DNA of 43,350 nucleotides from positions 1 through 43,350 of the IMG/VR virus record IMGVR_UViG_3300025870_001501; one strand, written 5' to 3'. Below, in pieces: positions 3,677 to 34,360 of the stretch. Under the pieces are notes generated by a model. That model did no database searches. It was given only the letters and a program-made list of their open reading frames with translations, and was not told the DNA's origin. The DNA is from a virus. Taxonomy: Duplodnaviria; Caudoviricetes. Each line of letters starts with the position of its first letter. The stretch's first letter is position 1. The translations under genes and the position numbers were made by a program.

Positions 3677-5581
3677 TTATTTCTTATCTTCTTCTTTGGG
3701 ATCAACTTCTTTAAAGTCAGCGTCTACAATATTTTCTTCTGTGCTTTCGCCTTGTTGTTCCGACTGTGCTTGTTCTTCTTGTGCTTGTTTGTACACTGCT
3801 TCGCCCAACTTCATACTGGCTTCTGTGAGTGTTTTGATTGCTTCTTGAATCTTACTCACATCATCTGTTTTGGATGCGTCGATTAAAGTTGCTTTGGCAT
3901 CTTCAATTGCTTTCTTTTCCTCTTCAGATATCTTGTCGCCATGCTCTTTGAGTTGCTTGTCGATTTGATGTGTCAGTGTTTCAGATTGGTTCTTTGTTTC
4001 TACCAACTCTCTTTTCTTCTTGTCTTCTTCTTTGTTGGCTTCTGCATCTTTAACCATCTGGTCAATGTCTTCATCTGAAAGTCCACCCGATGCTTGAATA
4101 GTGATCTTCTGTTCTTTGCCAGTGCCTTTGTCTTTGGCACTCACACTCAAGATACCATTTGCATCTATATCAAATGTAACTTCGATCTGTGGTAAACCTC
4201 TTGGAGCAGGTGCAATACCTTCAAGGTTAAAGTTACCCAGCAATTTGTTGTCCACTGCCATATCTCTTTCACCCTGTGTAACTCTGATGGTCACTGCCGC
4301 TTGGTTGTCTTCAGCAGTTGAAAACACTTGACTTTTCTTTGTGGGAATAGTTGTGTTCTTTTCTATTACTTTGGTTGTTACTCCGCCCAGTGTTTCAATA
4401 CCAAGTGATAAAGGTGTAACGTCTAACAACAATACATCTTTGACATCGCCTTGCAGTACTCCACCTTGAATAGCGGCACCCAATGCCACCACTTCATCTG
4501 GATTAACTCCTTTGTGTGGTTCTTTGCCAAAAAAGTCTTTGACTGTGTCAAACACTTTGGGCATTCTAGTCATACCACCTACTAACACCACTTCACTAAC
4601 ATCTTTTGCTGTGACCCCAGCATCTTTCAATGCCTGTTTGCAAGGAGAGAGTGTTCGTGCTATAAGATCACCAACTAAACTTTCCAATGTTGCTCTAGTC
4701 ATCTTTATGTTGATGTGTTTAGGTCCTGTTTTATCTGCTGTGATAAAAGGTAGATTGATGTCTGTTTGTGCGGTACTTGACAATTCTATTTTGGCTTTCT
4801 CAGCCGCCTCCCTCACACGTTGTACAGCCAATTTGTCGTTGGCTAAATCAATACCTTGATCTTTTTTAAATTCACTGATGATGTAATTTGTGATTGTAGC
4901 ATCAAAGTCTTCGCCACCCAGTGTTGTGTCACCATTTGTGGATTTAACTTCAAACACTCCGTCACCTAGTTCTAATATAGAAACATCAAATGTACCTCCA
5001 CCTAGATCGTACACAGCAATCGTGCCTGACTTTTTCTTATCCAGACCGTATGCCAACGCCGCCGCAGTTGGTTCATTGATAATTCTTTCCACTTCCAGTC
5101 CAGCAATCTTACCTGCGTCCTTTGTAGCCTTACGTTGACTGTCATTGAAGTACGCCGGTACAGTGATCACTGCCTTTGTAACTTCGGAACCTAGATATTT
5201 TTCTGCTGTTTCTTTCATCTTACGTAAAACAGAAGCAGAAATTTCAGATGGTGCATATTTTTTGCCATTGGCTTTAACCCAAGCATCACCGTTGTCTGCT
5301 TTCACAATTTCGTAAGGAAGTGTTTTGATATCTTTTTGCACAGCATCACCGTCGAATGTTCTACCAATCAAACGTTTCGCCGCAAATATTGTGTTGCTTG
5401 AATTGGATACTGCTTGTCTTTTTGCAGGCATACCAACCAATGTTTCAGAGTCTGTGAATGCTACCACACTTGGAGTGGTTCTTGCTCCTTCTGTATTTTC
5501 AATAACTTTTGCGTCCTTACCTTCCATCAAAGCAACACAAGAGTTTGTTGTACCCAAGTCTATTCCTATTATTTTACTCAT
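3677..5581 (-). CDS. dnaK: molecular chaperone DnaK (Hsp70)
   Basis: [37 protein letters not shown] signatures; 634 aa. Confidence 0.99.
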
Positions 5582-5589
5582 TTTAGTTT

Positions 5590-5605
5590 CTCCTTGTTAA
5601 GCGAG
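5590..5605 (-). promoter_or_regulatory. ROSE-like RNA thermometer hairpin sequestering the dnaK SD
   Basis: mRNA CUC-G-CUU-AAC-AAGGAG: UCGCU motif with bulged G paired to AGGAG. Confidence 0.6.
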
Positions 5606-5625
5606 TTTTTTTTATTATGTAAATT

Positions 5626-5653
5626 ATATAAGCACTCTTTGTCAAATGTCAAG
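5626..5653 (-). promoter_or_regulatory. RpoH (sigma32)-type promoter of dnaK
   Basis: CTTG-N17-CTTATAT, matching the alphaproteobacterial heat-shock consensus. Confidence 0.7.
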
Positions 5654-5666
5654 AGTTTTTGGTAAA

Positions 5667-7322
5667 CTAATCGTAGAAATCCCCAGATTTCATGTTAGTA
5701 TTTTCCACAGGATCCCAATCTTTCTTAACAGACTCGGGTTCATCAAACACTGACGCTCCTGTTGTGATTAATAATCCAGCAATACTTGAAGCATTTATTA
5801 ATGCTGTTTTTGACACTTTGGTAGGATCGATAATACCCAATTCCATCATGTCACCAAAATCACCTGTTCCAGCATCATAACCAAAGTTACCTTTACCTTT
5901 CAGTATTTCATTTATAATCACATCTGGCGATCCGCCTGCGTTCGCAATAATCTGTCTCACTGGAGATTCGAGTGCTTTCAACACAATCTGTATACCTGCT
6001 GTTTGATCTTCGTTGTCTCCTTGCAGATTTTCAATGTTTTGTTTGGCTCTTAAGAAAGCAACTCCACCACCTGGCACAACACCATCTTCAACTGCGGCTT
6101 TGGTAGCATTTAAGGCATCTTCAATTCTGTCTTTTTTCTCCTGCACTTCAACTTCAGTTGCGGCACCCACTCTAATCACTGCGACTCCGCCTGTAAGTTT
6201 GGCTAATCTTTCTTCTAATTTTCTTTTGTCATCGCCACCTTCACTCATTTCAATCTGTTTTTTAAGCTCTGCAACTCTGATGTCTATTTTAGATTTAAAT
6301 CCCTTGCCACCTATGATTGTGGTTGTGTTTTTGTCTACAACTACTCTTGATGCTTGTCCAAGGTCTTCCAATTTGGCTTTTTCTAAAGTTAATCCTGTGT
6401 CGTCTGATATCACTTCACCACCTGTTAGTGTTGCCATATCCTGCAACATTGCTTTTCTGCTGTTGCCATAACCCGGAGCATGAACTGCCGCACATCTAAT
6501 TGTGCCTTTGGCATTGTTCATCACTAATGTGGCTAGTGCCTCTCCTTCAGCATCTTCACACACAAATAAAAACGGTTTGTTCTTTTTGGCAAGTTCTTCT
6601 AATAGAGGAACAATTTCTTGAATAGTTCTAATGTGCTTACCTGTTAATATAATATAAACATCTTCCAATTCCACAAGTTGTTTTGCTGGATTGTTAATGA
6701 AGTACGGACTCATATAACCTCGATCAAATTGCAATCCTTCTACAACTTCCAGTTCATTCTTCATGGTCTTGCCTTTTTCAACAGTGATAACACCTTCTTT
6801 GCCAACCTTTTCCATAGCCTCAGCAATCATAGATCCTATGTCTTTGTCTGAGTTGGCAGATATAGTTCCAACTTGTTCTATTTCGTTCTGTGTTTTACAT
6901 TGTTTTGATATTTTAGAGAGTTGTTCAACCACTACATCAGTGGCTTTGTCCATTCCTCTTTTTAAATCCATTGGGTTCATGCCGGCAGTGATATACTTAA
7001 CACCTTCATTAACAATTGATTGAGCTAACACTGTGGCAGTGGTTGTTCCATCACCTGCTTCTTCGTTGGTTCTGCTGGCAACTTCCTTAACCATCTGAGC
7101 ACCCATGTTGGCTAGATCATCTTTTAATAAAATTTCTTTTGCTACTGTGACACCATCTTTGGTTATTGCTGGAGCACCCCATGTTCTCTGTAGAACAACA
7201 TTTCTACCTTTGGGTCCTAGAGTTATTCTCACAGCATTTGCTAGAATATCTACTCCTTGAATTAGTTTGCTTCTGCTACGAGATCCAAATTCTACTTTTT
7301 TTGTTTTACCATTAATTGCCAT
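5667..7322 (-). CDS. groEL: chaperonin GroEL (Cpn60)
   Basis: [37 protein letters not shown] motifs; no GGM tail. Confidence 0.99.
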
Positions 7323-11223: not shown

Positions 11224-11460
11224 ATGAAAGTACAAGAAGTAATAATATCCGAAGCAGGGCCTGCCAGTAAAGCATTGTGTAGAAGCAAAAAACCTGATCA
11301 TGCACTGGGTGCCAGTCAGTTGGCAAGTTGTAAAAGTCAAGGTTACAGAAAACGTTCAGGAAAAAAATCTTACAAGATTGGCAAGAAGAGAGTTTATGTT
11401 TCTGGAAAGAAGATTAAAGGCGAGCCATACGGCGGACCATTACCATTGTATAGTAAATGA
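11224..11460 (+). CDS. small basic putative head-internal protein
   Basis: MKVQEVIISE N-terminus; Lys/Arg-rich; TAAATA-N5-ATG. Confidence 0.65.
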   Translation: MKVQEVIISEAGPASKALCRSKKPDHALGASQLASCKSQGYRKRSGKKSYKIGKKRVYVSGKKIKGEPYGGPLPLYSK

Positions 11461-12011
11461 GAACATCGATAACAGGATCTAAATGGCAAAATAAGATACT
11501 AATCTCTACTCCCAAAATGGGACAGGATAGTACATTTGCAAGAAGTGTAGTATTTGTGTATGAAGAGTCTCCGCAACATGTGGCAGGACTTGTTATTAAT
11601 AAACCCACAAGAACAAAATTAAAAAAGATATTAGAATCTAAAGGATTTGCAACAGTTGACATGAAGGACCTAGTTTACCAAGGTGGACCAGTAAACCAAG
11701 AAAGTATTTTATTACTACACACAGACGAATGGAGTTGTAAGAACACTCTTAAATTGGGTAACGGATTCAGTTTAACAAGTGATGCTCAGATGTTAAAAAA
11801 ATTACACGAAGAAGATTCACCAGACGAATGGAGATGTTTTAGTGGATTAAGTGTGTGGTCACCAGGACAATTAGAAGGAGAAATCAACAGCAAGTGTTGG
11901 TTGACTGCAGAACCATCAGAAGAATTGCTTTTAAACACTCCTATTGAACAGATTTATGAAAAAGCAATTAAAATCTGCTCACAACAAACATTCAACAAAT
12001 ACATAGATTAA
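11457..12011 (+). CDS. YqgE/AlgH family protein (DUF179)
   Basis: LISTPKM-D-FARSVV, GLVINKP, YQGGPV, WSPGQLEGEI. Confidence 0.9.
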   Translation: MRTSITGSKWQNKILISTPKMGQDSTFARSVVFVYEESPQHVAGLVINKPTRTKLKKILESKGFATVDMKDLVYQGGPVNQESILLLHTDEWSCKNTLKLGNGFSLTSDAQMLKKLHEEDSPDEWRCFSGLSVWSPGQLEGEINSKCWLTAEPSEELLLNTPIEQIYEKAIKICSQQTFNKYID

Positions 12012-12036
12012 ACTGAGTAGTTAACTAAATACTGAT

Positions 12037-13215
12037 ATGCTTTCAGTTAATCCTTTTCAGGACATCATCAACAATCTCAAAGAGTCTGGAAATTACAGAG
12101 TTTTCAATGACATTCTTCGTGAGAGAGGTGAATACCCAAATGCTATATGGTATGGCAAATACAATATTAAAAATATTGTGAATTGGTGTTCAAATGATTA
12201 CCTAGGTATGGGTCAACATAAGGTGGTTCTAGATGCTATGCATACTGCATTGGATCAAACAGGTGCAGGCTCTGGTGGGACTAGGAACATAGGTGGAACC
12301 AGTCACTACCATGTAGCACTTGAAATTGAATTGGCTAAACTGCACAGCACTGAGTCGGCATTACTTTACAGTTCTGCCTACGTTGCAAACGAATGGAGTC
12401 TAATTGCATTAAAACGCATCATTCCTGATATTGTGTTTATTAGTGACAGCAAGAATCATGCTTCATTAATACAAGGTATCAGACATAGTGGTGCTGAGAA
12501 ACATATTTTCAAACACAATGATCTCGAGCAATTGGAATCTATACTCAAAACTTGTAAAGGCACACCTTGTATTGTCTTTGAATCTGTGTATAGCATGGAT
12601 GGGTTCATGAGTAAAATTACGGAAATCTGTGACCTAGCAGAAAAGTATGGTGCTATCACATATCTTGATGAGGTTCACGCAGTCGGCTTGTATGGAAATA
12701 AAGGCGGAGGTGTTACTCAAAAATTAGATCTACAAGATCGAATAGATATTTTGAATGGTACACTTGGTAAAGCCTTTGGCACACAGGGAGGTTACATCGT
12801 TGGTAAGTCTATTGTTTTAGACGCAATACGTTCTGTTGCCTCGGGCTTTATCTTTACAACTTCAATGAGTCCTGTGATTTGTGCAGGTGCATTGGCAAGT
12901 GTCAAGTATGTTGCAGACAACAACGACTTAAGAATAAAACATCAAGAAAGAGCAAACAGACTTAAAGAAATTTTTCGACAGAAAAACATTCCAATGATTG
13001 AAAACGAAACTCACATAGTTCCGGTTCATGTTGGAGAGGCTAAGAAGTGTAAAGCAATCAGCGATACACTGATAAATGAATATGGAATATATTGTCAAGC
13101 AATAAATTATCCAACAGTTGAAGTAGGCACAGAGCGACTACGTTTTGCACCGACACCGTTCCATACAGATGCAATGATGCATGATTTAAGAGACGCTCTA
13201 GAAAAGGTACTATAA
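12037..13215 (+). CDS. hemA: 5-aminolevulinate synthase
   Basis: [42 protein letters not shown] (PLP Lys), FIFTTS. Confidence 0.96.
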
Positions 13216-13634
13216 TGAATAAGATAAAAAAATATTTGTATCAAGCATTGGGATTTCTATGTGTGGGTATTGCCTACATAGGTTTTGTTACTCCAGGAAT
13301 ACCATTCTCGATATTTTTAGTGGTTGCCGCTTGGGCATTTGCAAAGAGTTCACCTAAGATGGAGGCTTGGTTGTATAACCATCCATGGTTTGGTAAATTC
13401 TTAACCAACTGGACAAAGAAAAGAGTATTTCCTATAAAAGGAAAATACGCAATGATATTAGTAATGAGTTCCACTTTAGCATTTACTTGGTATTTCACAG
13501 GTAATATGAAAGCAGTATTATGGTCAGGCATATCCATGGCACTAGTGGCTGTTTGGGCATGGCGTTATCCTTCTACTGTAGAAGAACACAATGCCAGAGT
13601 GAAAGCAGGCAAGAAGATTGGTTGGCTAAAATAA
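13215..13634 (+). CDS. ybaN: YbaN/DUF454 inner-membrane protein
   Basis: IGFVTPGIP...FAKSSP...WLYNHPWFG; TAATG-coupled to hemA. Confidence 0.85.
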   Translation: MNKIKKYLYQALGFLCVGIAYIGFVTPGIPFSIFLVVAAWAFAKSSPKMEAWLYNHPWFGKFLTNWTKKRVFPIKGKYAMILVMSSTLAFTWYFTGNMKAVLWSGISMALVAVWAWRYPSTVEEHNARVKAGKKIGWLK

Positions 13635-13637
13635 TAT

Positions 13638-14213
13638 GTGTTTAAAAGAATAGAAAACGTATTATCAGAAGCAGACTACAATCAATTACACGATACATTA
13701 TCATCGTTCCAATTTGACTGGCACTACTTGCCATCGTCTGTTCCACCAGATGTAATAGATGTTGTAAGTAAATCAAACTCATTTAACTTATACGAGCCTG
13801 GACAATTTGTTCACATGTTCTACGATCAAAAACCGTTGAGTCCTTATTGGAAGTTGGTCGAACCTATTTTGAAATCACTAGATAAACCGGTGGTAGAGAT
13901 GGGCAGAATCAAAGCCAATTTATTGATGCAGAATAACAGCGATAATCATGCTGTGAATTGTCCACATGTGGATAGAGATCGAGAAGGTTGGCACAGTTTA
14001 ATATATTATCTTAACGACTCCGATGGTGACACTGTATTGTTCGATAAAAAAGGCAACAGCGGATGGGATAATTTACAAGTTCAAGACACAGTAACACCTA
14101 AGAAAAATACTGCTGTGCTGTTTGAAAGCGATCAGTATCATGCTGGAACGAATCCTGTTGACAACCCTAGACGAATTGTGTTAAACTTTATTTTAAAATT
14201 TAAAAATGACTGA
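13638..14213 (+). CDS. 2OG-Fe(II) oxygenase
   Basis: PHVD...YYLNDSDGDT...HAG...RRIVLNF. Confidence 0.85.
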   Translation: MFKRIENVLSEADYNQLHDTLSSFQFDWHYLPSSVPPDVIDVVSKSNSFNLYEPGQFVHMFYDQKPLSPYWKLVEPILKSLDKPVVEMGRIKANLLMQNNSDNHAVNCPHVDRDREGWHSLIYYLNDSDGDTVLFDKKGNSGWDNLQVQDTVTPKKNTAVLFESDQYHAGTNPVDNPRRIVLNFILKFKND

Positions 14214-14868
14214 TAAGAACTTTAATATGATTCCGTTGTTTGGTATACCTTTGTATCAAACTGTGATAGAACCTGGTGTTAGCGAAGAAGAATTAAAATT
14301 TATCAAAGAACAAAAGTACGAAAGATTTGCCGCAGACAACGGATTTGGTTCTGTGGATAAATTTTTGTTAGACAATCTAGAATTAAAACAGTTAAAACAA
14401 AAACTTTTACATAAATGTGAACACTACATTCACGAAGTGTTAGACATTGATGAATCTAAAGCAAAGTTTGACATCACAAATAGTTGGAGTGTGAAACATA
14501 TTAAAGGTGATGAAAGCGATGCTCACACTCATGCAGGTAGTATGTTCAGTGCTGTTTACTATCTTCAAACAGAACAAGACAGTGGAGAAATTGTTTTTCA
14601 TAAAGAAAAAACAAACTACAATGTCTTGACACCAACGGTGAATGTGCCATACAAAAATAAAAACTTTAATATCTGTAACTCAGACGTATTTGCTATGCCT
14701 CCTCAAAATAATATGATGGTAGTTTTTCCTTCAACATTACCACACAGTGTTGAGCCTAGTAAAAGTAACACAGAACGATTTTGTATTGCTTTTAATCTAT
14801 TTGCTTTTGGCAAATTTGATCAAGGAGGAAGATCTCAATTAGGTTTACTCAACATTACAAAAACATAA
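14206..14868 (+). CDS. putative 2OG-Fe(II) oxygenase (TIGR02466-like)
   Basis: HTH...FSAVYYL...VFPSTLPHSV...RFCIAFN. Confidence 0.85.
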   Translation: MTDKNFNMIPLFGIPLYQTVIEPGVSEEELKFIKEQKYERFAADNGFGSVDKFLLDNLELKQLKQKLLHKCEHYIHEVLDIDESKAKFDITNSWSVKHIKGDESDAHTHAGSMFSAVYYLQTEQDSGEIVFHKEKTNYNVLTPTVNVPYKNKNFNICNSDVFAMPPQNNMMVVFPSTLPHSVEPSKSNTERFCIAFNLFAFGKFDQGGRSQLGLLNITKT

Positions 14869-15511: not shown

Positions 15512-15644
15512 GCAAATATTTAAAATAAACAAGGTGTTTATTTTAGTGTCTTTTAAGTTATGTGAGTAGTTAATACTTAATAGTATCTGATTATAATAAC
15601 AGCATACTTTATTAAATATTAGTATATTAAAAGAGGGCAACTAC

Positions 15645-18600
15645 ATGGCAATTTTTACAGATCCGTTAGCAATTGGAAAAGTTACCACAGCCGAACAACC
15701 GTTCACAATTCAACGTGGTAATGAAACGATAGAATTAAGCGAAGGTGATTTCATCTATCTAGATGACATGATCAGTGCTGGCGGAACTGCTGTGGGTATT
15801 GCTTTCGCAGACGAAACCACAATGTCTGTTGATCCAAACAGCACCATGACAATAGATGATTTTGTGTACGATCCCGAAAACCCCACTGTGGGATCCATGA
15901 ATGCCAATGTATTAGAAGGTAACTTTTCTTTTGTTTCAGGACAGATCGCCAAGACAGGTAACGATGCTATGAAAGTCACAACACCTGTGTTGACAATAGG
16001 TGTTAGAGGTACACAGGTTGCGGGTAAAGCCAACACAGAAGGCGAAGACAACGAGATAGTACTACTGCCCAACAGTGATGGTTCAGTTGGACAAATTTTA
16101 ATTGCCAACCAATCAGGCGAAGTGCTACTGACAAAACCATACGAGGCCACTATTATTGCAAACGCATATGTACCACCAACAGTTCCTGTGATCCTGCCAA
16201 AGGCAGAAGTGCTCAAGAAATTTGCTAAAACTATCTCCACAACACGTAAGACGGAAGCCAAAGCGGAAGTGGAAAGAGAGACAGAGGAAGCCACTAAAGA
16301 AAAAGCAGAAGCAGAAAAAGAAGGCGAGGAACTGGAAGAAGAGAAAGAACAACTAGAAGAAGAAAAAGAACAACTGGAAGAGGAAGCCGAGGAACTTGAA
16401 GAAAAATCTGAGGAACTGGAAGAGGAGGCGGAAGAACTTGACGAGGAGGCCGGAGAGCTGGAAGAAAAAGAAGAAAAGGTTCTAGAAGAAAAAGAAGAAA
16501 AACAAAAAGCCAAAGAACAAAAAGAGAAGGAAATTGAAGAACTAGAAGAACAACTGGAAGACATTCCTGTCGAGGAAAGAGAAATGATCGAACAGGAACT
16601 GCAACAGTTGGAAGAAGAATTTCAAGAGATCGAGGAAGAGGTACAACAGATCGAACAAGAGATCGAAGTGATCGCCCAGGAGAAAGCAGTTGTGGAACAA
16701 AAAGTTCAAGAGATAGAAAAAGAATTTGCTGAAATCAAAGAGGATTTTGCAGACATAGAAGCCAAAGTAGAGTTTGTAGAAAAAGAAGTGCTACAGGTTA
16801 TCGAAAAGGAACTAGTGATTGAGCAAAGAGTTCTGGCTGTGGAACAAAGATTCGAAGCCATCGTACAAAACTTTGAAAAATTCCAAGAGGAATTCGTACA
16901 AGAGTTTGAAGAATTTATACCAGTGGAAGAAATGCAACAGTTCAAAGAAGAAGCACCACAAGAAATGATGCGTGATGTACAAGAGAACGTCATGGAAGAA
17001 TTTAATGAAGTGGTGGAAGCACCACAAGAGATCATAGAAGAGGAACCCAAAGATATCTTTGCTGAGGAGAACGTGGAAGAGCAGATGCAGGAGATGGAAA
17101 ACAACGAAGAATTCCAGGAATTTGAAAAGATGATGGAAGAAGAAATGGCACCAGAGGGATTCAATGAGGACAATGACGTGTTCAACGTTGCTGAAGAAAA
17201 TCAAGTGGATGATCAAGCAGTGGAACAGTTTATACAGGAAGAAAAACAAAAAGCATTAGCAGAAGCCCCCATAGCACAAGAGATAGACAACTTCTTACAG
17301 GAGATAGATCCTGACAATGAAATGATTGACCAACAGGTCCAGGACATGATTGTGATAGAATCCCAGCACATAGATGAATGGTTTGATGGTGCTGGTGCAG
17401 GCATCAACAGTGTTGAGGATTTTTACGCCCTAGAGGAAAACGATTATTGGGATGTCATAGACAACAACGAGGATGCCTATAACGATTCCATGGAGGCAGA
17501 TTACATCATGGATCAGTTCATATACGAAATGGCAGAGGAACAAAACATCAACGTGGCTCCTTGGTTGGACATGCCAGCCGCAGTCACAGGTAATGAGAAC
17601 ACAGCAGTTGGCACAACACTGGGTTACGTGTATGGTTCAGATGCCAATGGCGATCAATTGACTTATTCTATATTTGATGATCCATCAGGCAACATTGGCA
17701 TAGACGGCAACAGGTTGTACCTGGCCAATGCTTTGAGTGTCACTGAAGATGTCACATTCAATGTGCTTTTGAAAGTGCAGGATCCATACGGAGCATCAGA
17801 CATAGACTCATGGCAAGTGACTGTGGAGAACAATCACTCACCTGTGATATCCAACACCAGTGCTGTGTCATTGGCAGAGGATGTCAGTACAGGCACATCA
17901 GTGGCAACAATATCTGCCTCGGATGCAGAGAGTGAAGCAATCACATATTCAATCACGGCAGGTAACACAGGCAACGCATTCACAATCAACTCCAGCACAG
18001 GTGCAATCACCACAGCGGCGGCACTGGACTATGAGACCACAACCAGTTACAGTTTGACAATCACAGCCACAGACGCATTTGGCAACGTGACCACTACCAC
18101 GCAGACTGTGAACGTCACAGACGTCAGCGAGGGTGCCAGCATACACGAAAACATATTGGACTTTGAAGACGTACACTCCGGCAACGACGGTGGCGAGATA
18201 GCCTACAAACTGAACGTGGGTTACTACGACATGGTCTCAGGTCAAGGTGACACAACCAATCAGGCGAGGATCATTGAGAACACAGGACACACAGCAACCA
18301 ACCTGACCAATGTTCGAACTTCCGATCTTTCGAACATAGACATCCTTTATGCACACAACGGAAGCAACAGTTCCTATTCCTCTGAATGGTTCACAGGCAC
18401 TGGTCAGTCAAGTGATAGTGCGGCAAGTAGTTCCAGCAGTGCCATATGGAGTTGGGTCAACGATGGTGGTATACTTTTGGTACAGGACAGACACGTGACA
18501 AACGCAAACGCGATGTTGTTGGGTGAGTCAGCCACAATCACAAAAAAACTTGGTTCTGGCCTAAACGATGACACAGACTTCAGGACGGAACTGAACGACA

Positions 18601-19304
18601 CCCTATTGTACAACGGTGCGGCGGGCACACTGACCAACAACACCCTGGACGGTGGTGACCACACTGACCACGGCCACATCACCAACCTGGGCACAGGCGA
18701 GGTGGGCATAGGACACAGGGGATCAAACAACGCCACTCCAAACGGTGAGAGTTACAACAACGCATTTGCCTACAAGTACGGTTCGGGACTGGTGTACTAC
18801 GACACATATCCCATGGACCTCTGGGACGCATACGGTGTCAACGATACATACACTGCCAACAGCCAATTAAAAACAGGTGGTGCACAGACCTACAACGAGA
18901 ATCTCATACAGTGGGCGGCGTCGCTGTACTATGACGGGGCATCACAGATCAACGGTACCAGCAGTTCTGAAACCATATTTGGAACCATGGGTGATGACAC
19001 AATATTCAGCAAGGACGGCGCAGACGAACTGTGGGGCGGTGCGGGTGCGGACACCTACATATACAAACAGGTTTACCAGTCAGATCCAGGTGGTGACGGA
19101 CAGCAAAACGACACTATTATAGATTTCAATTACAGCGAGGACAGGATTGACATCAGTGCTATAACGAATGGTGCAAGTATTTCAAGGACCTTAGTCAACA
19201 ACACACTGTTCAAAATAGACACCGACAACAACGGCAGTTATGACATGCAATGGGATCTGGACGGCTACACAGGCACAGCAGACCAAGTAACTGTGGTAAC
19301 ATAA
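15645..19304 (+). CDS. giant T1SS-type substrate/adhesin: FecR domain, Glu-rich coiled-coil stalk, cadherin repeats, RTX/T1SS C-terminal signal
   Basis: FecR motifs (FADETTMSV, TPVLTIGVRGT); LDYETTTSYSLTITATD cadherin; GADELWGGAGADTY RTX nonapeptides; DTIIDFN...DRIDIS export signal; no signal peptide. Confidence 0.85.
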   Translation: MAIFTDPLAIGKVTTAEQPFTIQRGNETIELSEGDFIYLDDMISAGGTAVGIAFADETTMSVDPNSTMTIDDFVYDPENPTVGSMNANVLEGNFSFVSGQIAKTGNDAMKVTTPVLTIGVRGTQVAGKANTEGEDNEIVLLPNSDGSVGQILIANQSGEVLLTKPYEATIIANAYVPPTVPVILPKAEVLKKFAKTISTTRKTEAKAEVERETEEATKEKAEAEKEGEELEEEKEQLEEEKEQLEEEAEELEEKSEELEEEAEELDEEAGELEEKEEKVLEEKEEKQKAKEQKEKEIEELEEQLEDIPVEEREMIEQELQQLEEEFQEIEEEVQQIEQEIEVIAQEKAVVEQKVQEIEKEFAEIKEDFADIEAKVEFVEKEVLQVIEKELVIEQRVLAVEQRFEAIVQNFEKFQEEFVQEFEEFIPVEEMQQFKEEAPQEMMRDVQENVMEEFNEVVEAPQEIIEEEPKDIFAEENVEEQMQEMENNEEFQEFEKMMEEEMAPEGFNEDNDVFNVAEENQVDDQAVEQFIQEEKQKALAEAPIAQEIDNFLQEIDPDNEMIDQQVQDMIVIESQHIDEWFDGAGAGINSVEDFYALEENDYWDVIDNNEDAYNDSMEADYIMDQFIYEMAEEQNINVAPWLDMPAAVTGNENTAVGTTLGYVYGSDANGDQLTYSIFDDPSGNIGIDGNRLYLANALSVTEDVTFNVLLKVQDPYGASDIDSWQVTVENNHSPVISNTSAVSLAEDVSTGTSVATISASDAESEAITYSITAGNTGNAFTINSSTGAITTAAALDYETTTSYSLTITATDAFGNVTTTTQTVNVTDVSEGASIHENILDFEDVHSGNDGGEIAYKLNVGYYDMVSGQGDTTNQARIIENTGHTATNLTNVRTSDLSNIDILYAHNGSNSSYSSEWFTGTGQSSDSAASSSSSAIWSWVNDGGILLVQDRHVTNANAMLLGESATITKKLGSGLNDDTDFRTELNDTLLYNGAAGTLTNNTLDGGDHTDHGHITNLGTGEVGIGHRGSNNATPNGESYNNAFAYKYGSGLVYYDTYPMDLWDAYGVNDTYTANSQLKTGGAQTYNENLIQWAASLYYDGASQINGTSSSETIFGTMGDDTIFSKDGADELWGGAGADTYIYKQVYQSDPGGDGQQNDTIIDFNYSEDRIDISAITNGASISRTLVNNTLFKIDTDNNGSYDMQWDLDGYTGTADQVTVVT
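16325..16480 (+). repeat. degenerate 21-bp tandem repeat (E-L-E-E-E-x-E heptads)
   Basis: About 7 copies of a GAACTGGAAGARGAR-type unit. Confidence 0.75.
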
Positions 19305-19317
19305 ATATAGGTATATA

Positions 19318-21054
19318 ATGAACAAATTCGTACACTACATTTTGATAGCAATCATGTTCAACTGGAACATAGCCGTCTTTGCGGAAGACAGTGGAGGGTG
19401 TGAATGGGAAGTGGTGGAAGTAACTGAAACTTATATTCAAGAGAAGTGTGGAGACAATCAAGTAAGAATTAAGTCCAAACCTATTGAAGGCATGAACATT
19501 GAGATAGTTGAAGCACCCAAAAATAAAAAAAACAATCCCATAAAAGAATTCAAAGACAAAGTAGAAAAGGCTCCCAAAGTTATTGAGAAAGTTGAAAAAC
19601 TTGAGAAGATAGAACAGGAAGTCATAGCCACAGAAGATAAAGTTAAAGAACATATTGAGAAAAAGAAACTGGCAGAAACACCTGTTGCAGAAACAACAAA
19701 ACCCAAAGTTAAAAAAGAAATTGCTAAAAAACAAGTTGATGCCAAAGCAGATGAAAAACTGGTAAAACAAGCCACAGAAAAAGCATGGTCAGATGTTGAC
19801 GCTGATCAAAAAATTACATGGATGCAGTTCCATGAATTGCTACCAAGACTGATCGTTGAGAATGAAAAGATCAAAGCGGCTGAACTGGATTACGAAGCGG
19901 CTGTTGAAGCATTAAAATCAGAATACACAGCATACTATCCTCAGGTTTCTGTATCAATTGGCAACAACTGGGAAGATGATAGAACTCCTGCAAAAGGTAC
20001 ATATCCCAACAACACAATCACACACGATTCTAAACAGGGCATACAAAAATCAATCACAGTCACACAGATGATCTGGGACGCAGGCAGAACCACTGCCATG
20101 ATAGACAAAGCCAAAGCAACTGCTCAACAGGCACACTATAGATTGGAACTTACAAAAGAAGATGTTGTAATAGAGGCAATCAATGCTTGGTTAAATTTAC
20201 AAAAGGCTTACAACACACACGAAGCGAATAAAAAAATAGAAGCCAATGCTAAAGTTACATTGTCTATGACAATAGAAAAAGTGAAAAAAGGCGAAGGTTC
20301 TAAACTTGAACAATTACAAATTGAACAACAGTACAGAACATATCAAACTCTTTCAATGACAAGTAGATTGGGATTAGACAGTGCTATACAAAGATTTCAA
20401 AACGTTTGGAGATTCAAACCACACAACATCGCAGGCATGCCAAAACCTTTGGCAGACGCACTGGGCATAATTCCTGTACAAGGAACTCCAGTGTCCAACA
20501 ACACAACACTGCGTATTGCCAGCATGGATGTTACTATTGCTCAAGAACAATTAAATTTTGATAGAGCAGAATTTAAACCAAGAGTGGACGGCAAACTGTC
20601 TTACACAGAGAAGGACGGTGAACTGGCAGGTGGATATGATACAAGTAATTCGCAGAAAGAAGAATGGAGAGCAGACATCACCATGACATGGAAGTTATTC
20701 AATTTCAAGAACAGACACATGACCAATGCAGACCGTTCTCGTTTGAATGCCGCTAACTTTAGATATTCTAATGTGTTAAGAACCACACAGGAACAGTTCA
20801 ACAACGCATGGAACAACTACGTGTTGGTTGAAAAGAATCTAGCCACTCTGAAGAGAACAGTTGAGATAAATCAAGAAATGTACAAACTCACACTGGCAGA
20901 CTTCCAAGCAGGTAACTCACCCATAATGGCGGTGTTTGGTATGAAGACAGCACACTTAATGAGTGAGGTTGCGTATCTAAACGCACAGATAGATTGGCAG
21001 ATAGCAAGATATCAACTGCACAAGGTGTTAGGTGTTGTAGACCCACTTCTATAA
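19318..21054 (+). CDS. TolC family outer-membrane channel with K/E-rich N-terminal extension
   Basis: Signal peptide; two OEP repeats (YYPQVSVS...TQMIWDAG; FKPRVDG...TWKLFN; FQAGNSPIMAV). Confidence 0.85.
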   Translation: MNKFVHYILIAIMFNWNIAVFAEDSGGCEWEVVEVTETYIQEKCGDNQVRIKSKPIEGMNIEIVEAPKNKKNNPIKEFKDKVEKAPKVIEKVEKLEKIEQEVIATEDKVKEHIEKKKLAETPVAETTKPKVKKEIAKKQVDAKADEKLVKQATEKAWSDVDADQKITWMQFHELLPRLIVENEKIKAAELDYEAAVEALKSEYTAYYPQVSVSIGNNWEDDRTPAKGTYPNNTITHDSKQGIQKSITVTQMIWDAGRTTAMIDKAKATAQQAHYRLELTKEDVVIEAINAWLNLQKAYNTHEANKKIEANAKVTLSMTIEKVKKGEGSKLEQLQIEQQYRTYQTLSMTSRLGLDSAIQRFQNVWRFKPHNIAGMPKPLADALGIIPVQGTPVSNNTTLRIASMDVTIAQEQLNFDRAEFKPRVDGKLSYTEKDGELAGGYDTSNSQKEEWRADITMTWKLFNFKNRHMTNADRSRLNAANFRYSNVLRTTQEQFNNAWNNYVLVEKNLATLKRTVEINQEMYKLTLADFQAGNSPIMAVFGMKTAHLMSEVAYLNAQIDWQIARYQLHKVLGVVDPLL

Positions 21055-21084
21055 TATTGTCAAATCAATTAAATACTACTATAT

Positions 21085-21834
21085 ATGACAAGTTTTTTAC
21101 GACAATTATTCCGCGATAAATCAAACGCCATAATGCTATTAACAAGCAGTTTGATCATTGCCATCTGTGCGTTGGCTCCGGCCTTGTTTGTGATTATTGT
21201 GTTGAACAAGTATCTAGCATCTGGAGTTACATCCACCCTGATATCTTTGGGTATGGGTGCCATACTATTGTTGGCATTTGAATTTGGTTTCAGACAGAAC
21301 AGAGCAGGCATGATACAGCAGTTGAACATTAGGATATTCACTCCATTGTTGAATGCATATGCAAAAAAGATTAAAGAAACTCAGATCACAGGAGAACAGT
21401 TTAAAAGATTAGAAGTTGCAGGTGGAACAATTAAGGGTGCAACCGGTTCCAGCATTACTGGTTGGATATTGGATTGGCCATTTGTGTTGGCATTTCTTAT
21501 TGTGCTACTCTATATCAATTGGACAGCGGCTTTGATTGCTGGGATATTCATGATCATCATGATGGTGTTAACAGCACAGAGATTGAATCTCAGTCTACAA
21601 CAGGACAGCACAGCAAATTTAGAAATATTTTTAACAGGACTAATGACAGTGGTCATCATGTCAGTGGGTGCGACACAAATTATCGCAGGTTCATTGGACG
21701 TGGGATTATTAATAGGTTCCAACATATTGGCGGCAAGAGCACTGCAAGGTGCTAACAAATATGCCAAAGCAAAGGAGGCAATAGAAAAACGTGACCGAGC
21801 AACAGCAGAAATCATCAATTTCATCAAACAATAA
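21085..21834 (+). CDS. T1SS ABC-transporter transmembrane domain only (no NBD)
   Basis: LAPALFVIIVLNKYL...STL, LDWPF, GSLDVGLLIGSNILAARAL match PrtD/LapB-type TMD; no Walker A or LSGGQ. Confidence 0.8.
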   Translation: MTSFLRQLFRDKSNAIMLLTSSLIIAICALAPALFVIIVLNKYLASGVTSTLISLGMGAILLLAFEFGFRQNRAGMIQQLNIRIFTPLLNAYAKKIKETQITGEQFKRLEVAGGTIKGATGSSITGWILDWPFVLAFLIVLLYINWTAALIAGIFMIIMMVLTAQRLNLSLQQDSTANLEIFLTGLMTVVIMSVGATQIIAGSLDVGLLIGSNILAARALQGANKYAKAKEAIEKRDRATAEIINFIKQ

Positions 21835-22516
21835 ATTCTTTGGCTTGTTGACAAGTCTATTTGTTGTGTTCTTTGTATGGATGTCATTTTCCAAAGTCGA
21901 TATAACTTCTGTCGCCAACGGACTGGTAATACCTGAAAAAAATATCACAACACTTGGCACAATGGTTACAGGAGAAATTGTGAAAGTGAACCACAAGCAA
22001 GGAGACGTGGTTAAAAAAGGCGACATCATAATCACAATTAATCCCGGAGTAGGATACGAACCTTATCACATACGAGCAAACATAGATGGGAAGATACAAC
22101 AACTTACATTTAAAAATCCAGGCTCTGTGGTAAAACAAGGTGACGCACTGGCAGTGCTGGTACCCCTAGATCAAAAATTAATTGTTCAAGGACAATTGCA
22201 AATAAAAGACAGAGGCTATGTAGAAGTAGGACAAACAGCAAAAATTAAATTGGCAAGTTCAGAAGCATTCACATACCTTCCAATAGTAGCCAAGATAATT
22301 TCCATATCTCCTGATGCTGTACAAGGACAAGCAATGTCGTTCTATGAAATAGAATTAGAATTAGATTCACAGGCTTTTGCCAACGGAGACTTGCAGTACA
22401 AACTAGTGCCTGGTGTACAAGTACACGTGTTTATCTTGACTGGAGAACGTACAATATTGAGTTACGTGACAACACCCTTTCACAACAGCATAGGCATGGC
22501 ACTACAGGAGAGATAA
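21791..22516 (+). CDS. HlyD family membrane fusion protein, helical hairpin missing
   Basis: N-terminal TM; GEIVKV..KQGDVVKKGD; IRANIDG; ISPDA; LVPG; TGERTILSY; only 241 aa. Confidence 0.85.
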   Translation: MTEQQQKSSISSNNKFFGLLTSLFVVFFVWMSFSKVDITSVANGLVIPEKNITTLGTMVTGEIVKVNHKQGDVVKKGDIIITINPGVGYEPYHIRANIDGKIQQLTFKNPGSVVKQGDALAVLVPLDQKLIVQGQLQIKDRGYVEVGQTAKIKLASSEAFTYLPIVAKIISISPDAVQGQAMSFYEIELELDSQAFANGDLQYKLVPGVQVHVFILTGERTILSYVTTPFHNSIGMALQER

Positions 22517-22517
22517 C

Positions 22518-22874
22518 ATGGAACAAAAGAAATTAACAATCAGGGAAAGATGGCGTAAGGCTATGACTGCGGACAACATGGTTGATCTCAGTGTTGACAT
22601 CTTCCTCATTGTGTTCGACGTGTTGAGCTCTCCCATACTGATCGTCATGAGAATTGTGCGTTGGATATTGGCCAAGTTCGTCAATGACCATGTAAAGAGT
22701 TTTATCAAGAGGATAGTGCATTGGTTCTTGGACAACAGGAAGATCAGACTAGAACGAGGACAGAACATATTCCGTTACTACTGGTACCTGTGGATGTTGA
22801 GTCCTTTTATTGTTTTTGCGTTGTGGATGCTGATAGCAGTCACAATAGGATTAAGACAAGGTGCAGGACTGTAA
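22518..22874 (+). CDS. small membrane protein
   Basis: Two hydrophobic segments; GGAG RBS; TAATG-coupled to the cyclase. Confidence 0.75.
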   Translation: MEQKKLTIRERWRKAMTADNMVDLSVDIFLIVFDVLSSPILIVMRIVRWILAKFVNDHVKSFIKRIVHWFLDNRKIRLERGQNIFRYYWYLWMLSPFIVFALWMLIAVTIGLRQGAGL

Positions 22875-24799
22875 TGAAGATATTCACAAGCATATGGATG
22901 GTGATAGTGTTTGCGATTGTGCTGACAGGAATCAGGATAGACAACAGCGACACAGTAAAAATTATTAGATATAAGACTTGGGACAAATTTCAAACAATTC
23001 AACCAAGACAGATGGTAAGTGATTCTGTCACTGTTGTAAACATCACAGAACAAGATATTAAGACGTATGGACAATGGCCATGGCCCAGACATGTGATGGC
23101 TATGCTACACGCAGAGTTGTCTGATGCAGGTGCAATCCTTGTGAACTACAATATAATGTTTGCTGAACCAGACAGAATGAGTGGTGTTGAATATCTAAAA
23201 TCAATGCCTATGACCAATGATTTGCGAGAGCAATTGGGACAAGCATTGTTGGACACAGATGCAATATTCTCCATAGTGTTGAAAGAATCTAAGAAAGCCA
23301 TTTTAATGATGAGTGTTAAAAACACTGCTGACACAAACTTACCCAGCACAACACAGATCATAGAAAAAGGCAACGTGAAGCCATGGTTATACGAGTATGA
23401 AGGCATAGTGTCCCCAAATGCAAAAGTTTCCGTAGGTGCAACAGGCATGGGTGTGAATGTTACTTCACCGGAACCAGATGCTGTTGTGAGAAAGATGCCT
23501 GTGTTAATACGTGTGGGAGATAAGATATATCCCTCTATGCTACTAGAGAATGTTAGACTTTTAAATAAATCAAAAAGAATCAAAGTCATAGCAAAACAAC
23601 ACGGCATAGACGAAGTGCTTGTGAGCAAGAAGGCAGGTATACCTGTGAATCATAATGCAGAAATGTATATCAACTATGCAGACCCTTCAATGTATGTTAA
23701 TGTGTCAGCCACAGATATACTGACAGGCAATTACAACGAAAACAAAGTTAAAGGCAGAATTATTGTTATAGGTTTGGATGCCGCAGGATTGAGTGTGTTG
23801 AAATATACACCGCATGGACTTACAACAGATCAAATGATTACTGCCCAATCATTGGATACATTGTTAACAGGCAAATATTTGTTGCGTACACCACAAGCAG
23901 ACACATATGAAATTGCGTTCCTGGCGTTGTTATTATTGCTGTTGATATTAGTACTGCCTAGAACCAGTGTGTTGTTGGCTGTACCTCTTTTATTATTTGT
24001 GGAAGTAGGTGTTGCCTACGGAGCATTCACGGCATACACTAACAAAGGATTTCTTGTAGACCCATCTTGGATAATGTTGTCTGTGTTTTTAATTTGGTCT
24101 CATTCTGTGTACAACAACTTTGCGACACAGAGCAGATTGAAACAACAGATCAAGAAACAGTTTGAACACTACCTTGATCCTGGCATGGTTAAAAAATTAC
24201 AAAAGGATCCCAGCCTACTTAAACTGGGAGGCGAGACAAAGAACATGACTTTCTTGTTCTGTGACATCAGGGGCTTCACACCTATCAGTGAGAAGTACAA
24301 AGGCAATCCAGCAGGACTCACAAAACTTATTAATAGATTCTTGACACGCATGACAGATGTTATAATCTCAAATGGTGGAACAATAGACAAGTTTATGGGT
24401 GACTGTATTATGGCATTCTGGAACGCACCTATTGAAAATAAAAAACACAGAGAACTAGCAGTTAAAAGTTCTTTGGAAATGACTGTGGCATTGGCAGAAT
24501 TGAATATGCATCTACAAGCAGAAGGACTTCCACAGATCAACATAGGAATAGGAATCAACACAGGCGATGCATTGGTGGGTAACATGGGATCGGAACAGAG
24601 ATTTGATTACTCTGTGATTGGCGATGCAGTTAATCTAGCAAGTAGATTAGAGAGCTCATCTAAAACATTAGGCAAAACCATAGTGATAGGTGAGAACACA
24701 AGACACACAATAGAAACAGTTTACCCGTTTGAGTACATTGACAGCATCACAGTCAAAGGTAAGACTGAAAATATAAAAGTTTATACTATTCCTTTATAG
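22874..24799 (+). CDS. CHASE2-domain class III adenylate cyclase
   Basis: GQWPWPR CHASE2 motif; 3 TM; CDIRGFT, DKFMGD, DYSVIGDAVNLASRLE with all catalytic and ATP-specifying residues; start reassigned to ATG 22874. Confidence 0.93.
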   Translation: MKIFTSIWMVIVFAIVLTGIRIDNSDTVKIIRYKTWDKFQTIQPRQMVSDSVTVVNITEQDIKTYGQWPWPRHVMAMLHAELSDAGAILVNYNIMFAEPDRMSGVEYLKSMPMTNDLREQLGQALLDTDAIFSIVLKESKKAILMMSVKNTADTNLPSTTQIIEKGNVKPWLYEYEGIVSPNAKVSVGATGMGVNVTSPEPDAVVRKMPVLIRVGDKIYPSMLLENVRLLNKSKRIKVIAKQHGIDEVLVSKKAGIPVNHNAEMYINYADPSMYVNVSATDILTGNYNENKVKGRIIVIGLDAAGLSVLKYTPHGLTTDQMITAQSLDTLLTGKYLLRTPQADTYEIAFLALLLLLLILVLPRTSVLLAVPLLLFVEVGVAYGAFTAYTNKGFLVDPSWIMLSVFLIWSHSVYNNFATQSRLKQQIKKQFEHYLDPGMVKKLQKDPSLLKLGGETKNMTFLFCDIRGFTPISEKYKGNPAGLTKLINRFLTRMTDVIISNGGTIDKFMGDCIMAFWNAPIENKKHRELAVKSSLEMTVALAELNMHLQAEGLPQINIGIGINTGDALVGNMGSEQRFDYSVIGDAVNLASRLESSSKTLGKTIVIGENTRHTIETVYPFEYIDSITVKGKTENIKVYTIPL

Positions 24800-29193: not shown

Positions 29194-29271
29194 TACCAAA
29201 ACCTTATAAATAATTGCATATGCACTTCTGAGCGAAGTGTGTGTCATTAAAGAGAAAACAGGAGAAAAACA
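29194..29271 (+). promoter_or_regulatory. late promoter + leader hairpin + RBS (copy 1)
   Basis: TATAAATA 29205-29212; CACTTC-TGAGC-GAAGTG; CAGGAG. Confidence 0.75.
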
Positions 29272-29658
29272 ATGGCAACATTAACAAAAACAAATCCACC
29301 AGTAGCAAACGCAATTGGTGAAATCCGTAACTTCGGAAAAGCAATCACAATGATCGCAATAGATTGGGACATTGATGCAGATGCATCAAGAATCGCAATG
29401 GAAGCCTTACACAACACAATTATGACAAGAGCGACTATCTTAGCCGCAGGTGCAGTGTATGACACAGGAACAAAGCAAGACTTTATTCTTGAAGGTGATT
29501 TCCCAGGAAGTGATTACGTATCAGAAGACGGTACAGTAACAGGTACATTTGCCGCGGCATTAGTAGAAGACATTATCAACTTGGCAACAGTTGATGGCGT
29601 TAACTTTGCGGCAGGCACAGTAGCAGTAACGGAAAAAACAACTTTAAAATTTGCTTAA
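29272..29658 (+). CDS. putative abundant virion structural (decoration-like) protein
   Basis: Ala/Thr/Gly-rich; own promoter and terminator. Confidence 0.7.
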   Translation: MATLTKTNPPVANAIGEIRNFGKAITMIAIDWDIDADASRIAMEALHNTIMTRATILAAGAVYDTGTKQDFILEGDFPGSDYVSEDGTVTGTFAAALVEDIINLATVDGVNFAAGTVAVTEKTTLKFA

Positions 29659-29730: not shown

Positions 29731-29807
29731 TACCAAAACTTTATAAATACTAGCAACATACACTTCGGAGCGAGGTGTGACCATTAATAGAAAACAGGAG
29801 AAATAAA
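29731..29807 (+). promoter_or_regulatory. late promoter + leader hairpin + RBS (copy 2)
   Basis: TATAAATA 29742-29749; CACTTC-GGAGC-GAGGTG; CAGGAG. Confidence 0.75.
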
Positions 29808-33991: not shown

Positions 33992-34360
33992 ATGGATAGA
34001 ACCAAAGAACAAATACTTCATGACATCGAATCCGTAATTGAAAAATATATCAAGTCTCAAGTTGAATCTCACGGAGGTCAAGTTGAAGCAAAAGAGTTCG
34101 ATGTTGATACAGGAAAATTAACCATGTTGATGAAAGGTGCCTGTTCAGGTTGTGCAGGTAGTACTGCCACTCTGCAGAAAGGTATAGAGTCAACAATGAA
34201 ACATTATGTGCCTGAAGTAAAACAGGTTGTTGGTGAAGATGATCCTAACAGTACAACTAAACCTTATTACGATTACAATCCATGGGACGGTCCAACACAA
34301 GATGATATGTTAGATGAGTTGGATAGACTGTCTACAGAAAATAACAACAATGAAAATTAA
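33992..34360 (+). CDS. NifU/NfuA C-terminal domain Fe-S carrier
   Basis: SHGG-VE...MKGACSGC...TLQKGIE...VPEV. Confidence 0.9.
   Translation: MDRTKEQILHDIESVIEKYIKSQVESHGGQVEAKEFDVDTGKLTMLMKGACSGCAGSTATLQKGIESTMKHYVPEVKQVVGEDDPNSTTKPYYDYNPWDGPTQDDMLDELDRLSTENNNNEN

Follow-up and report, generated by a model that had tools for sequence, protein, structure and literature searches.

How can a type I secretion locus be maintained by a phage when its ABC transporter has lost the ATPase domain? The question is raised by a virus record of 43,350 nt (Duplodnaviria; Caudoviricetes; IMGVR_UViG_3300025870_001501), the whole of which was analysed and is referred to here as the window. The record is about 12% complete, and a phage genome of several hundred kb is therefore implied; it carries genes for DnaK, GroEL and ribonucleotide reductase together with phage-type genes. 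An open reading frame on its plus strand (21085..21834, ATG start, TAA stop) encodes a protein of 249 aa, in which an initial annotation had recognized the motifs of a type I secretion transmembrane domain without a nucleotide-binding domain (NBD).

A membrane domain without an ATPase

The 249-aa protein matched only the membrane part of the type I secretion ABC models TIGR03375 (E 2e-14), TIGR01842 and TIGR01846, and all three matches were below the cut-off (52.7 bits vs. 693 required for TIGR03375). The profile of its family matched HlyB (8DCK/7SGR, E 4e-11, in two stretches) and PrtD (5L22). The AlphaFold model was all-helical (pLDDT 83.9), and its best Foldseek match was HlyB 8DCK, with a TM-score of 0.70 by query length. 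Profiles, AlphaFold and Foldseek all bore out the first reading: a LapB/HlyB-type membrane domain of six TM helices, with the type IV exporter fold and homologous to HlyB/PrtD, is present and a fused NBD is absent. The 55 full-length relatives found (about 30% identity, the nearest mostly of 540-590 aa) all carried the ATPase domain; in the alignment to them the 249-aa protein matched from residue 1 through TM6 and then ended.

Loop lengths were compared between anchor residues in 17 short forms and 45 of the 105 full-length relatives available. The span P132-G195 (TM4-TM5) was 64-69 aa in all 17 short forms vs. 119-121 aa in all 45 full-length relatives, and 56 aa of the second cytoplasmic loop, with its coupling helix, were missing from every short form. 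The remnant is a short TM4-TM5 link (residues 165-180; 21577..21624), and in the AlphaFold model an 8-residue turn joins the two helices in the loop's place. The first cytoplasmic loop (TM2-TM3 span) was about 6 aa shorter in the short forms (median 58 vs. 64), and the two periplasmic spans did not differ in length. One coupling loop was thus lost with the ATPase, not both. The initial annotation had seen shortened cytoplasmic loops and a joint loss of the motor and its docking loops. This was correct for the loop that it had named, between VLTAQR and LEIFLTG, and for the ATPase, but the first loop is nearly full length; the comparison with HlyB and PrtD that it had suggested gave a fold of their type with the second coupling loop not intact. 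Among 15 divergent sequences, the periplasmic loops were conserved at 0.86 and 0.81 and the cytoplasmic loops at 0.46-0.50, the first cytoplasmic loop (0.46) being the least conserved region of the membrane domain. Such a conserved periplasmic face is as expected if the dimer and adaptor contacts matter and the motor contacts do not. The 249-aa protein is real and conserved and departs from canonical type I ABC transporters: it corresponds to their membrane half, without the ATPase domain and the second coupling loop.

A cognate ATPase encoded by a separate gene was also searched for. As had been stated initially, no NBD gene was found in the window: PF00005 gave no match, and the best E of our own NBD profile among 193 frames was 0.4. 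The profile of the relatives' ATPase domain found nothing in 110 cassette sources (109 loci, some of them duplicates, and the window) and recovered all six bacterial control loci. In eight virus records (about 680 kb), PF00005 was matched above the cut-off once, by SufC in a suf operon. The orphan-NBD scan proposed in the initial annotation thus returned no cognate NBD from these incomplete records; the eight are 7-47% complete, so that absence from the genome is not proven.

Cassette organization and partner proteins

The gene belongs to a cassette that encodes, on the same strand and in this order, a 1219-aa FecR-cadherin-RTX protein, TolC, the 249-aa protein, a 241-aa HlyD, a small membrane protein and a CHASE2 cyclase. 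Genes of the ABC, HlyD and TolC families and an RTX-type cargo stand together in one locus in the window and its relatives, and a FecR-domain protein, a CHASE2 output protein and an outer-membrane channel are co-located in it. The tolC gene was directly 5' of the membrane-domain gene in all 95 loci with room for it, hlyD was 3' of it in 94 of 95, and the cyclase gene followed within 2 kb in 64 of 66; the other two loci adjoin a curli block. The 118-aa membrane protein (22518..22874) had no Pfam or NCBIfam match, and its gene is patchily distributed, being present in some cassettes only. The class III nucleotide cyclase with a CHASE2 domain (22874..24799, the ATG at 22874 being taken as its start; 641 aa) matched PF05226 (E 3e-38) and PF00211 (E 6e-22). 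Gene-by-gene identities across the cassette form a mosaic. In three loci (L033:3848-10536, L095:3227-7729, L111:3364-5568) a curli block, consisting of CsgF, CsgG, an unassigned gene and a FecR protein, adjoins the cassette tail to tail, with a second CHASE2 cyclase in L033.

The predicted cargo (15645..19304) consists of an N-terminal FecR domain, a long acidic coiled-coil-like stalk (37% Asp/Glu in residues 200-640), a cadherin domain, a C-terminal RTX repeat and an end like that of type I targets. PF04773, PF00028 and PF00353 were above the cut-off, the last-named RTX repeat at the C-terminal end, where TIGR03661 gave a weak match below it. No signal peptide was recognized by inspection. 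Among the matches listed, many cargo homologues ended differently and had no RTX repeat close to the C-terminus. Comparison of L006:4284-8216 with the window gene showed two alternative C-termini, RTX-type and non-RTX, swapped among close relatives.

The TolC-family outer membrane channel (19318..21054, 578 aa; PF02321, E 1e-49) has a signal-peptide-like start, an added N-terminal two-cysteine module and a charged tether, which varied in length among the matches listed. The module had no match in 14 bacterial loci, and it may be guessed that it stands in for the adaptor hairpin as a link. In the periplasmic tip of H7/H8 (20902..20949), an Arg and an Asp that were both kept in the three bacterial TolCs were both missing from all 65 phage TolCs. 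By motif position these are presumably R367 and D371 of E. coli. A gating role of these two residues is described in the available text of PMC8277102.

The HlyD-type adaptor (21791..22516) matched TIGR01843 in two stretches, below the cut-off. It has a TM anchor, directly joined lipoyl halves and a beta-barrel, and the alpha-hairpin is absent. Its gene starts with GTG behind a Shine-Dalgarno-like AAGGAGG (21772-21778) and overlaps the membrane-domain gene by 44 nt. The hairpin, which docks TolC, was absent from 79 of 81 homologues, and a hairpin tip of about 60 aa was kept in the other two; these (L028:1753-2724 and L091:3552-4460), with their partial hairpin, are intermediate between full and hairpin-less forms. 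Reduction is therefore common to the three channel parts, affecting the NBD and loop of the ABC, the hairpin of HlyD and the gate residues of TolC. The initial annotation, which was silent on the changes in HlyD and TolC, had described the first of these only.

A TAAATA motif was found within 50 nt 5' of the membrane-domain gene in all 65 distinct sequences (21069..21075 in the window) vs. none of 325 coding control windows, and 5' of tolC in 47 of 48 distinct upstream 50-mers (19301..19307) vs. 1 of 240. It also precedes the cargo gene (15612..15618; based on the window alone) and was found 5' of the cyclase in only 1 of 60 cases. The motif resembles the T4 late promoter consensus. Since the controls were coding rather than intergenic windows, late expression of the cassette from TAAATA is an inference, with the copy at 21069..21075 as the predicted late promoter for the membrane domain, HlyD, small membrane protein and cyclase. 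Elsewhere in the window, two alike upstream elements (29206-29250 and 29743-29787), each with TATAAATA and then a common stretch, stand 5' of paralog-like genes at 29272 and 29808.

Conservation, origin and host

Homologues of the 249-aa protein numbered 843, with lengths from 136 to 436 aa, and a length of 249-250 aa was shared by 119 of the best 120. Seven further clusters (30-61% identity) had the same length and the same deletion, and both were unchanged down to 34% identity. A tree was built from 168 columns that exclude the deletion; in it, 15 of the 16 short forms formed one clade (support 99), P0210 being unplaced. Pairwise dN/dS had a median of 0.144 and a maximum of 0.468 over 905 pairs, which are not independent (those of 4095 with dS 0.1-1.5, from 91 distinct sequences), similar to TolC (0.107), HlyD (0.103) and the cyclase (0.082). 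Host genes carried by phages often erode, and neutral decay of a captured bacterial operon might be suspected for this reason. However, signs of decay (dN/dS near 1, scattered breaks, a unique allele) were looked for in the family and not found, and the low dN/dS, the best homologues of nearly uniform length, the loop deletion constant down to such low identity and the conserved upstream motif leave this explanation hardly any probability; it was rejected. The gene is kept under strong selection in a family of large ocean phages. The initial view that selection for a new role, not random decay, had shaped the protein is supported by these values and by the short close homologues, the allele being neither unique nor neutrally evolving.

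Full-length ABC relatives occur in Rhodospirillales-type MAGs, and one locus (L023) has TolC, a FecR-RTX protein, ABC and HlyD in cassette order. In the marine order of MAG G005, an intact ABC relative of 530-544 aa was present in 24 of 42 genomes, and all nine loci examined there had a FecR protein, ABC, HlyD, CHASE2 cyclase, cNMP-binding HlyD and C39-ABC. Based on these donor-type loci with the same gene set, the phage cassette is a condensed version of a locus that is conserved in cells; it keeps the sensor arm and drops the motor. The phage ABCs shared 24-39% local identity with those of the G005 order, with scores below those of the Rhodospirillales relatives, and the two were not sisters in a gap-free tree. 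In L249:12489-18759 and L263-L270, the CHASE2 cyclase adjoins a HlyD fused to a cNMP-binding domain and a C39-ABC, an arrangement conserved in this marine alphaproteobacterial order; beside a second type I system with FecR-RTX cargo, it is a possible cAMP-gated secretion circuit. Six relatives of about 1000 aa were also seen (P0237, P0266, P0267, P0300, P0312, P0318), and the four inspected are natural ABC-HlyD fusions.

The host is probably SAR11. The best 80 DnaK matches, from a scan of 23 of 64 parts, were all Pelagibacterales (71-81%), and DnaK leans to SAR11 over the order of G005 (75-76 vs. 69%), as do PetB and SufC, whose genes came from related records and not from the window; GroEL favours neither, and HemA points slightly away from SAR11. 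No type I adaptor passed the cut-off in 201 SAR11-family genomes (a sample in which G133 counts as one row), and no LapB-like ABC was found in five SAR11 genomes, most of them complete. A CHASE2 protein was present in 49 of the 201 genomes. Among five such loci examined, two were phage-like curli blocks and three were chromosomal, and in all three of the latter FecR and predicted barrel genes adjoin a CHASE2-SpoIIE protein. Domains binding cNMP were found in 9 of 121 SAR11-family genomes and in none of five phage records. Several contigs of this phage family (L011 and L012, i.e., G005:C12 and C19, and G005:C13), probably misbinned, occur in MAG G005, which is labelled Rickettsiales; as this MAG also holds other phage-like contigs, co-binning is weak host evidence. 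Host-like genes in the window (3677-7322, 11457-14868, 33992-34360) encode DnaK, GroEL, a HemA-like aminotransferase, AlgH/DUF179, DUF454, 2OG-Fe(II) oxygenases and, by inspection, a NifU-like protein; in related records, cytochrome b (L040) and a suf operon (L124) were seen. Three SAR11-family runs (L242:25-13401, L243:41-10247, L244:1064-11994) encode a giant adhesin followed by a short adaptor of about 238 aa, an adaptor of about 444 aa and a membrane-peptidase-adaptor fusion of about 700 aa; they contain no ABC gene and are possibly another export set without an ATPase.

Possible function and related systems

The main reading, to which a probability of about 45% is given, is that the 249-aa domain and the hairpin-less HlyD form a self-contained, unpowered gate in the inner membrane for the FecR-tipped adhesin, which in turn would signal to the cyclase. 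The membrane domain would still dimerise and bind HlyD, as suggested by the periplasmic loops being its most conserved parts, and its cytoplasmic entrance would be short and not cyclable, since NBD and swapped loop are both missing. As the cargo has no evident signal peptide, an inner-membrane route would be needed; the acidic chain would thread C-terminus first into a TolC that needs no hairpin to open and would be pulled by calcium-driven folding outside, perhaps aided by the membrane potential, so that the adhesin would cross the envelope of the infected cell late in infection. The N-terminal FecR domain would remain in the periplasm as a plug and control the CHASE2 cyclase, the cassette thus reporting surface contact as cAMP. 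This sensor step is suggested by gene context: FecR and CHASE2 proteins occur together in all nine full donor-type loci, in the three chromosomal SAR11-family loci and in the phage curli blocks, and they co-occur with three different outer channels (TolC, CsgG and a predicted barrel). In a wider and tentative form, large marine phages could have evolved an ATP-independent type I secretion, with a passive gate, a hairpin-less adaptor and an ungated, tethered TolC, which installs the plugged adhesin in a host without such a system and wires surface contact to cAMP late in infection.

The unpowered gate is favoured by the losses in ABC, HlyD and TolC occurring together, the fixed synteny, the purifying selection, the absence of a cognate NBD from the sources scanned and a likely host in which no adaptor passed the cut-off, and calcium-driven ratcheting of RTX cargo is documented in the available text of PMC6891781. 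On the other hand, mutations that abolish ATP hydrolysis block secretion in the HlyB system, according to the accessible part of 10.1101/2025.05.27.656419, and no ATP-free type I system was found in the literature searched. Moreover, the loss of the hairpin leaves the periplasm without a sealed duct, the non-RTX end of many cargo homologues weakens the ratchet, and the TolC tip, being hydrophobic, could form a hydrophobic gate instead of an open one. The uncertain host, the intact full-length relative in many genomes of the other marine order, the scarcity of cNMP-binding domains in SAR11-family genomes and phage records and the incompleteness of all virus records also count against it.

Several other explanations have to be considered. 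The phage membrane domain and short HlyD may be built into a type I complex of the host, in which they would act as a scaffold or select the cargo while a full-length host ABC supplies the ATP. The HlyB/D complex, as described in the available text of 10.1101/2025.05.27.656419, comprises three ABC dimers and six adaptors, and one dimer may carry cargo while others hydrolyse ATP; the order of G005 has the full donor locus with an intact frame, and one of its MAGs holds two phage-cassette contigs. Such powering in trans is nevertheless unlikely, given the distance between phage and candidate host ABCs, the lean of DnaK, PetB and SufC to SAR11, where no adaptor passed the cut-off, and the other phage-like contigs in that MAG. 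Somewhat more doubtful is a cassette that exports nothing, in which the domain and short HlyD would be an inner-membrane scaffold or small-molecule pore organizing TolC, FecR and the cyclase, with the large protein reaching its place by some other route, e.g., release at lysis or attachment to the virion. The absence of both motor and duct agrees with it, as do the swapping of the cargo C-terminus without a matching change in the membrane domain and the late-promoter-like motif, which fits late or structural genes. However, the cargo gene adjoins tolC and its product has no signal peptide by inspection and, in many homologues, a type I-like end, while the FecR proteins of curli blocks, which have no such gate, do have signal-peptide-like starts by inspection.

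A dominant-negative decoy, poisoning the host type I system and, e.g., removing the receptor of competing phages, is improbable. Both truncations are shaped as might be expected of poisoning subunits and full type I systems exist in marine alphaproteobacteria, but a decoy needs no TolC, cargo and cyclase of its own in fixed order, none of the host ABCs found is a close relative of the phage protein, and the swapped loop, much of the dimer contact, is lost. Less probable still is a split transporter, in which an ATPase from a separate phage gene at another place in the genome would dock on the membrane domain. Incomplete records and a nearly full-length first loop leave some room for it, and a database protein, P0244, joins part of the short-form domain to part of an ATPase; this protein, however, has neither TM1-3 nor the Walker A region and is probably a chimera produced by assembly. 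Against a split transporter, the loop that would do most of the docking has been deleted, the remaining cytoplasmic loop is the least conserved region, and the eight virus records gave SufC only. Of the three roles proposed in the initial annotation, passive pore or scaffold fits best, and the decoy is the poorest fit, since TolC, cargo and cyclase are all retained in the cassette itself and a target is mostly missing from the likely host.

Whether ATP serves type I secretion in initiation, in gating or in continuous pushing has long been asked. The phage family provides a natural, selected deletion series, with no ATPase, no coupling loop, no or a partial adaptor hairpin and an altered TolC tip, and its four small genes make the question directly testable. 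If the unpowered gate is correct, abundant marine phages would have, beside the published curli block, a second set of genes that combines secretion with a sensor, which would point to infected cells being given new adhesive or sensing surfaces. No published description of the cassette was found in the full-text literature searched, which covers few subscription papers; the cassette is a variant of type I secretion without a motor of its own.

Among known systems, the HlyB, PrtD and LssB/LapB exporters (TIGR01846, TIGR01842, TIGR03375; 8DCK, 7SGR, 5L22) share with the 249-aa protein the six-helix fold and motifs, and its gene likewise adjoins those of a HlyD adaptor, TolC and RTX-type cargo. 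In contrast to them, the phage protein has no NBD, C39 domain or second cytoplasmic loop, the phage adaptor has no hairpin and the phage TolC lacks the two gate residues. The alphaproteobacterial TolC - FecR-RTX - ABC - HlyD locus with a CHASE2 cyclase (L023 in part; L249, L263-L270) is similar in gene set and core order, has a FecR domain 38-48% identical to that of the phage and holds the nearest full-length ABC relatives. It differs in its ABC of 528-654 aa with an NBD and its HlyD of 415-452 aa, and the G005 order adds a second system (cNMP-binding HlyD and C39-ABC) that the phage cassette lacks.

The pelagiphage curli (T8SS) block with FecR and adenylate cyclase, which adjoins the cassette in L033, L095 and L111, is also a phage-borne secretion set without a periplasmic gate, according to the available text of PMC9599517 and PMC7029224, in the main text of which the terms 'TolC' and 'type I' do not occur. 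It uses CsgG/CsgF and FecR proteins with signal-peptide-like starts, and no ABC-derived part. In Borrelia BesABC, as described in the accessible part of PMC8277102, a hairpin-less adaptor (BesA) works with a weakly gated outer channel (BesC) as in the phage set, a precedent that counts for the unpowered gate; unlike the phage set, BesABC is an RND pump for small molecules with its own energy coupling. Similarly, in Sinorhizobium NsrA - CHASE2 cyclase and in the FecR-CHASE2 clusters of Campylobacterota, an outside signal passes via an outer-membrane protein to a CHASE2 cyclase, and the Sinorhizobium CHASE2 cyclases respond to outside signals (PMC13001267 and PMC9239204, available text). These pathways are cellular and have a beta-barrel receptor, with a known cAMP receptor, Clr, in Sinorhizobium, whereas the phage set is predicted to use a TolC-threaded adhesin.
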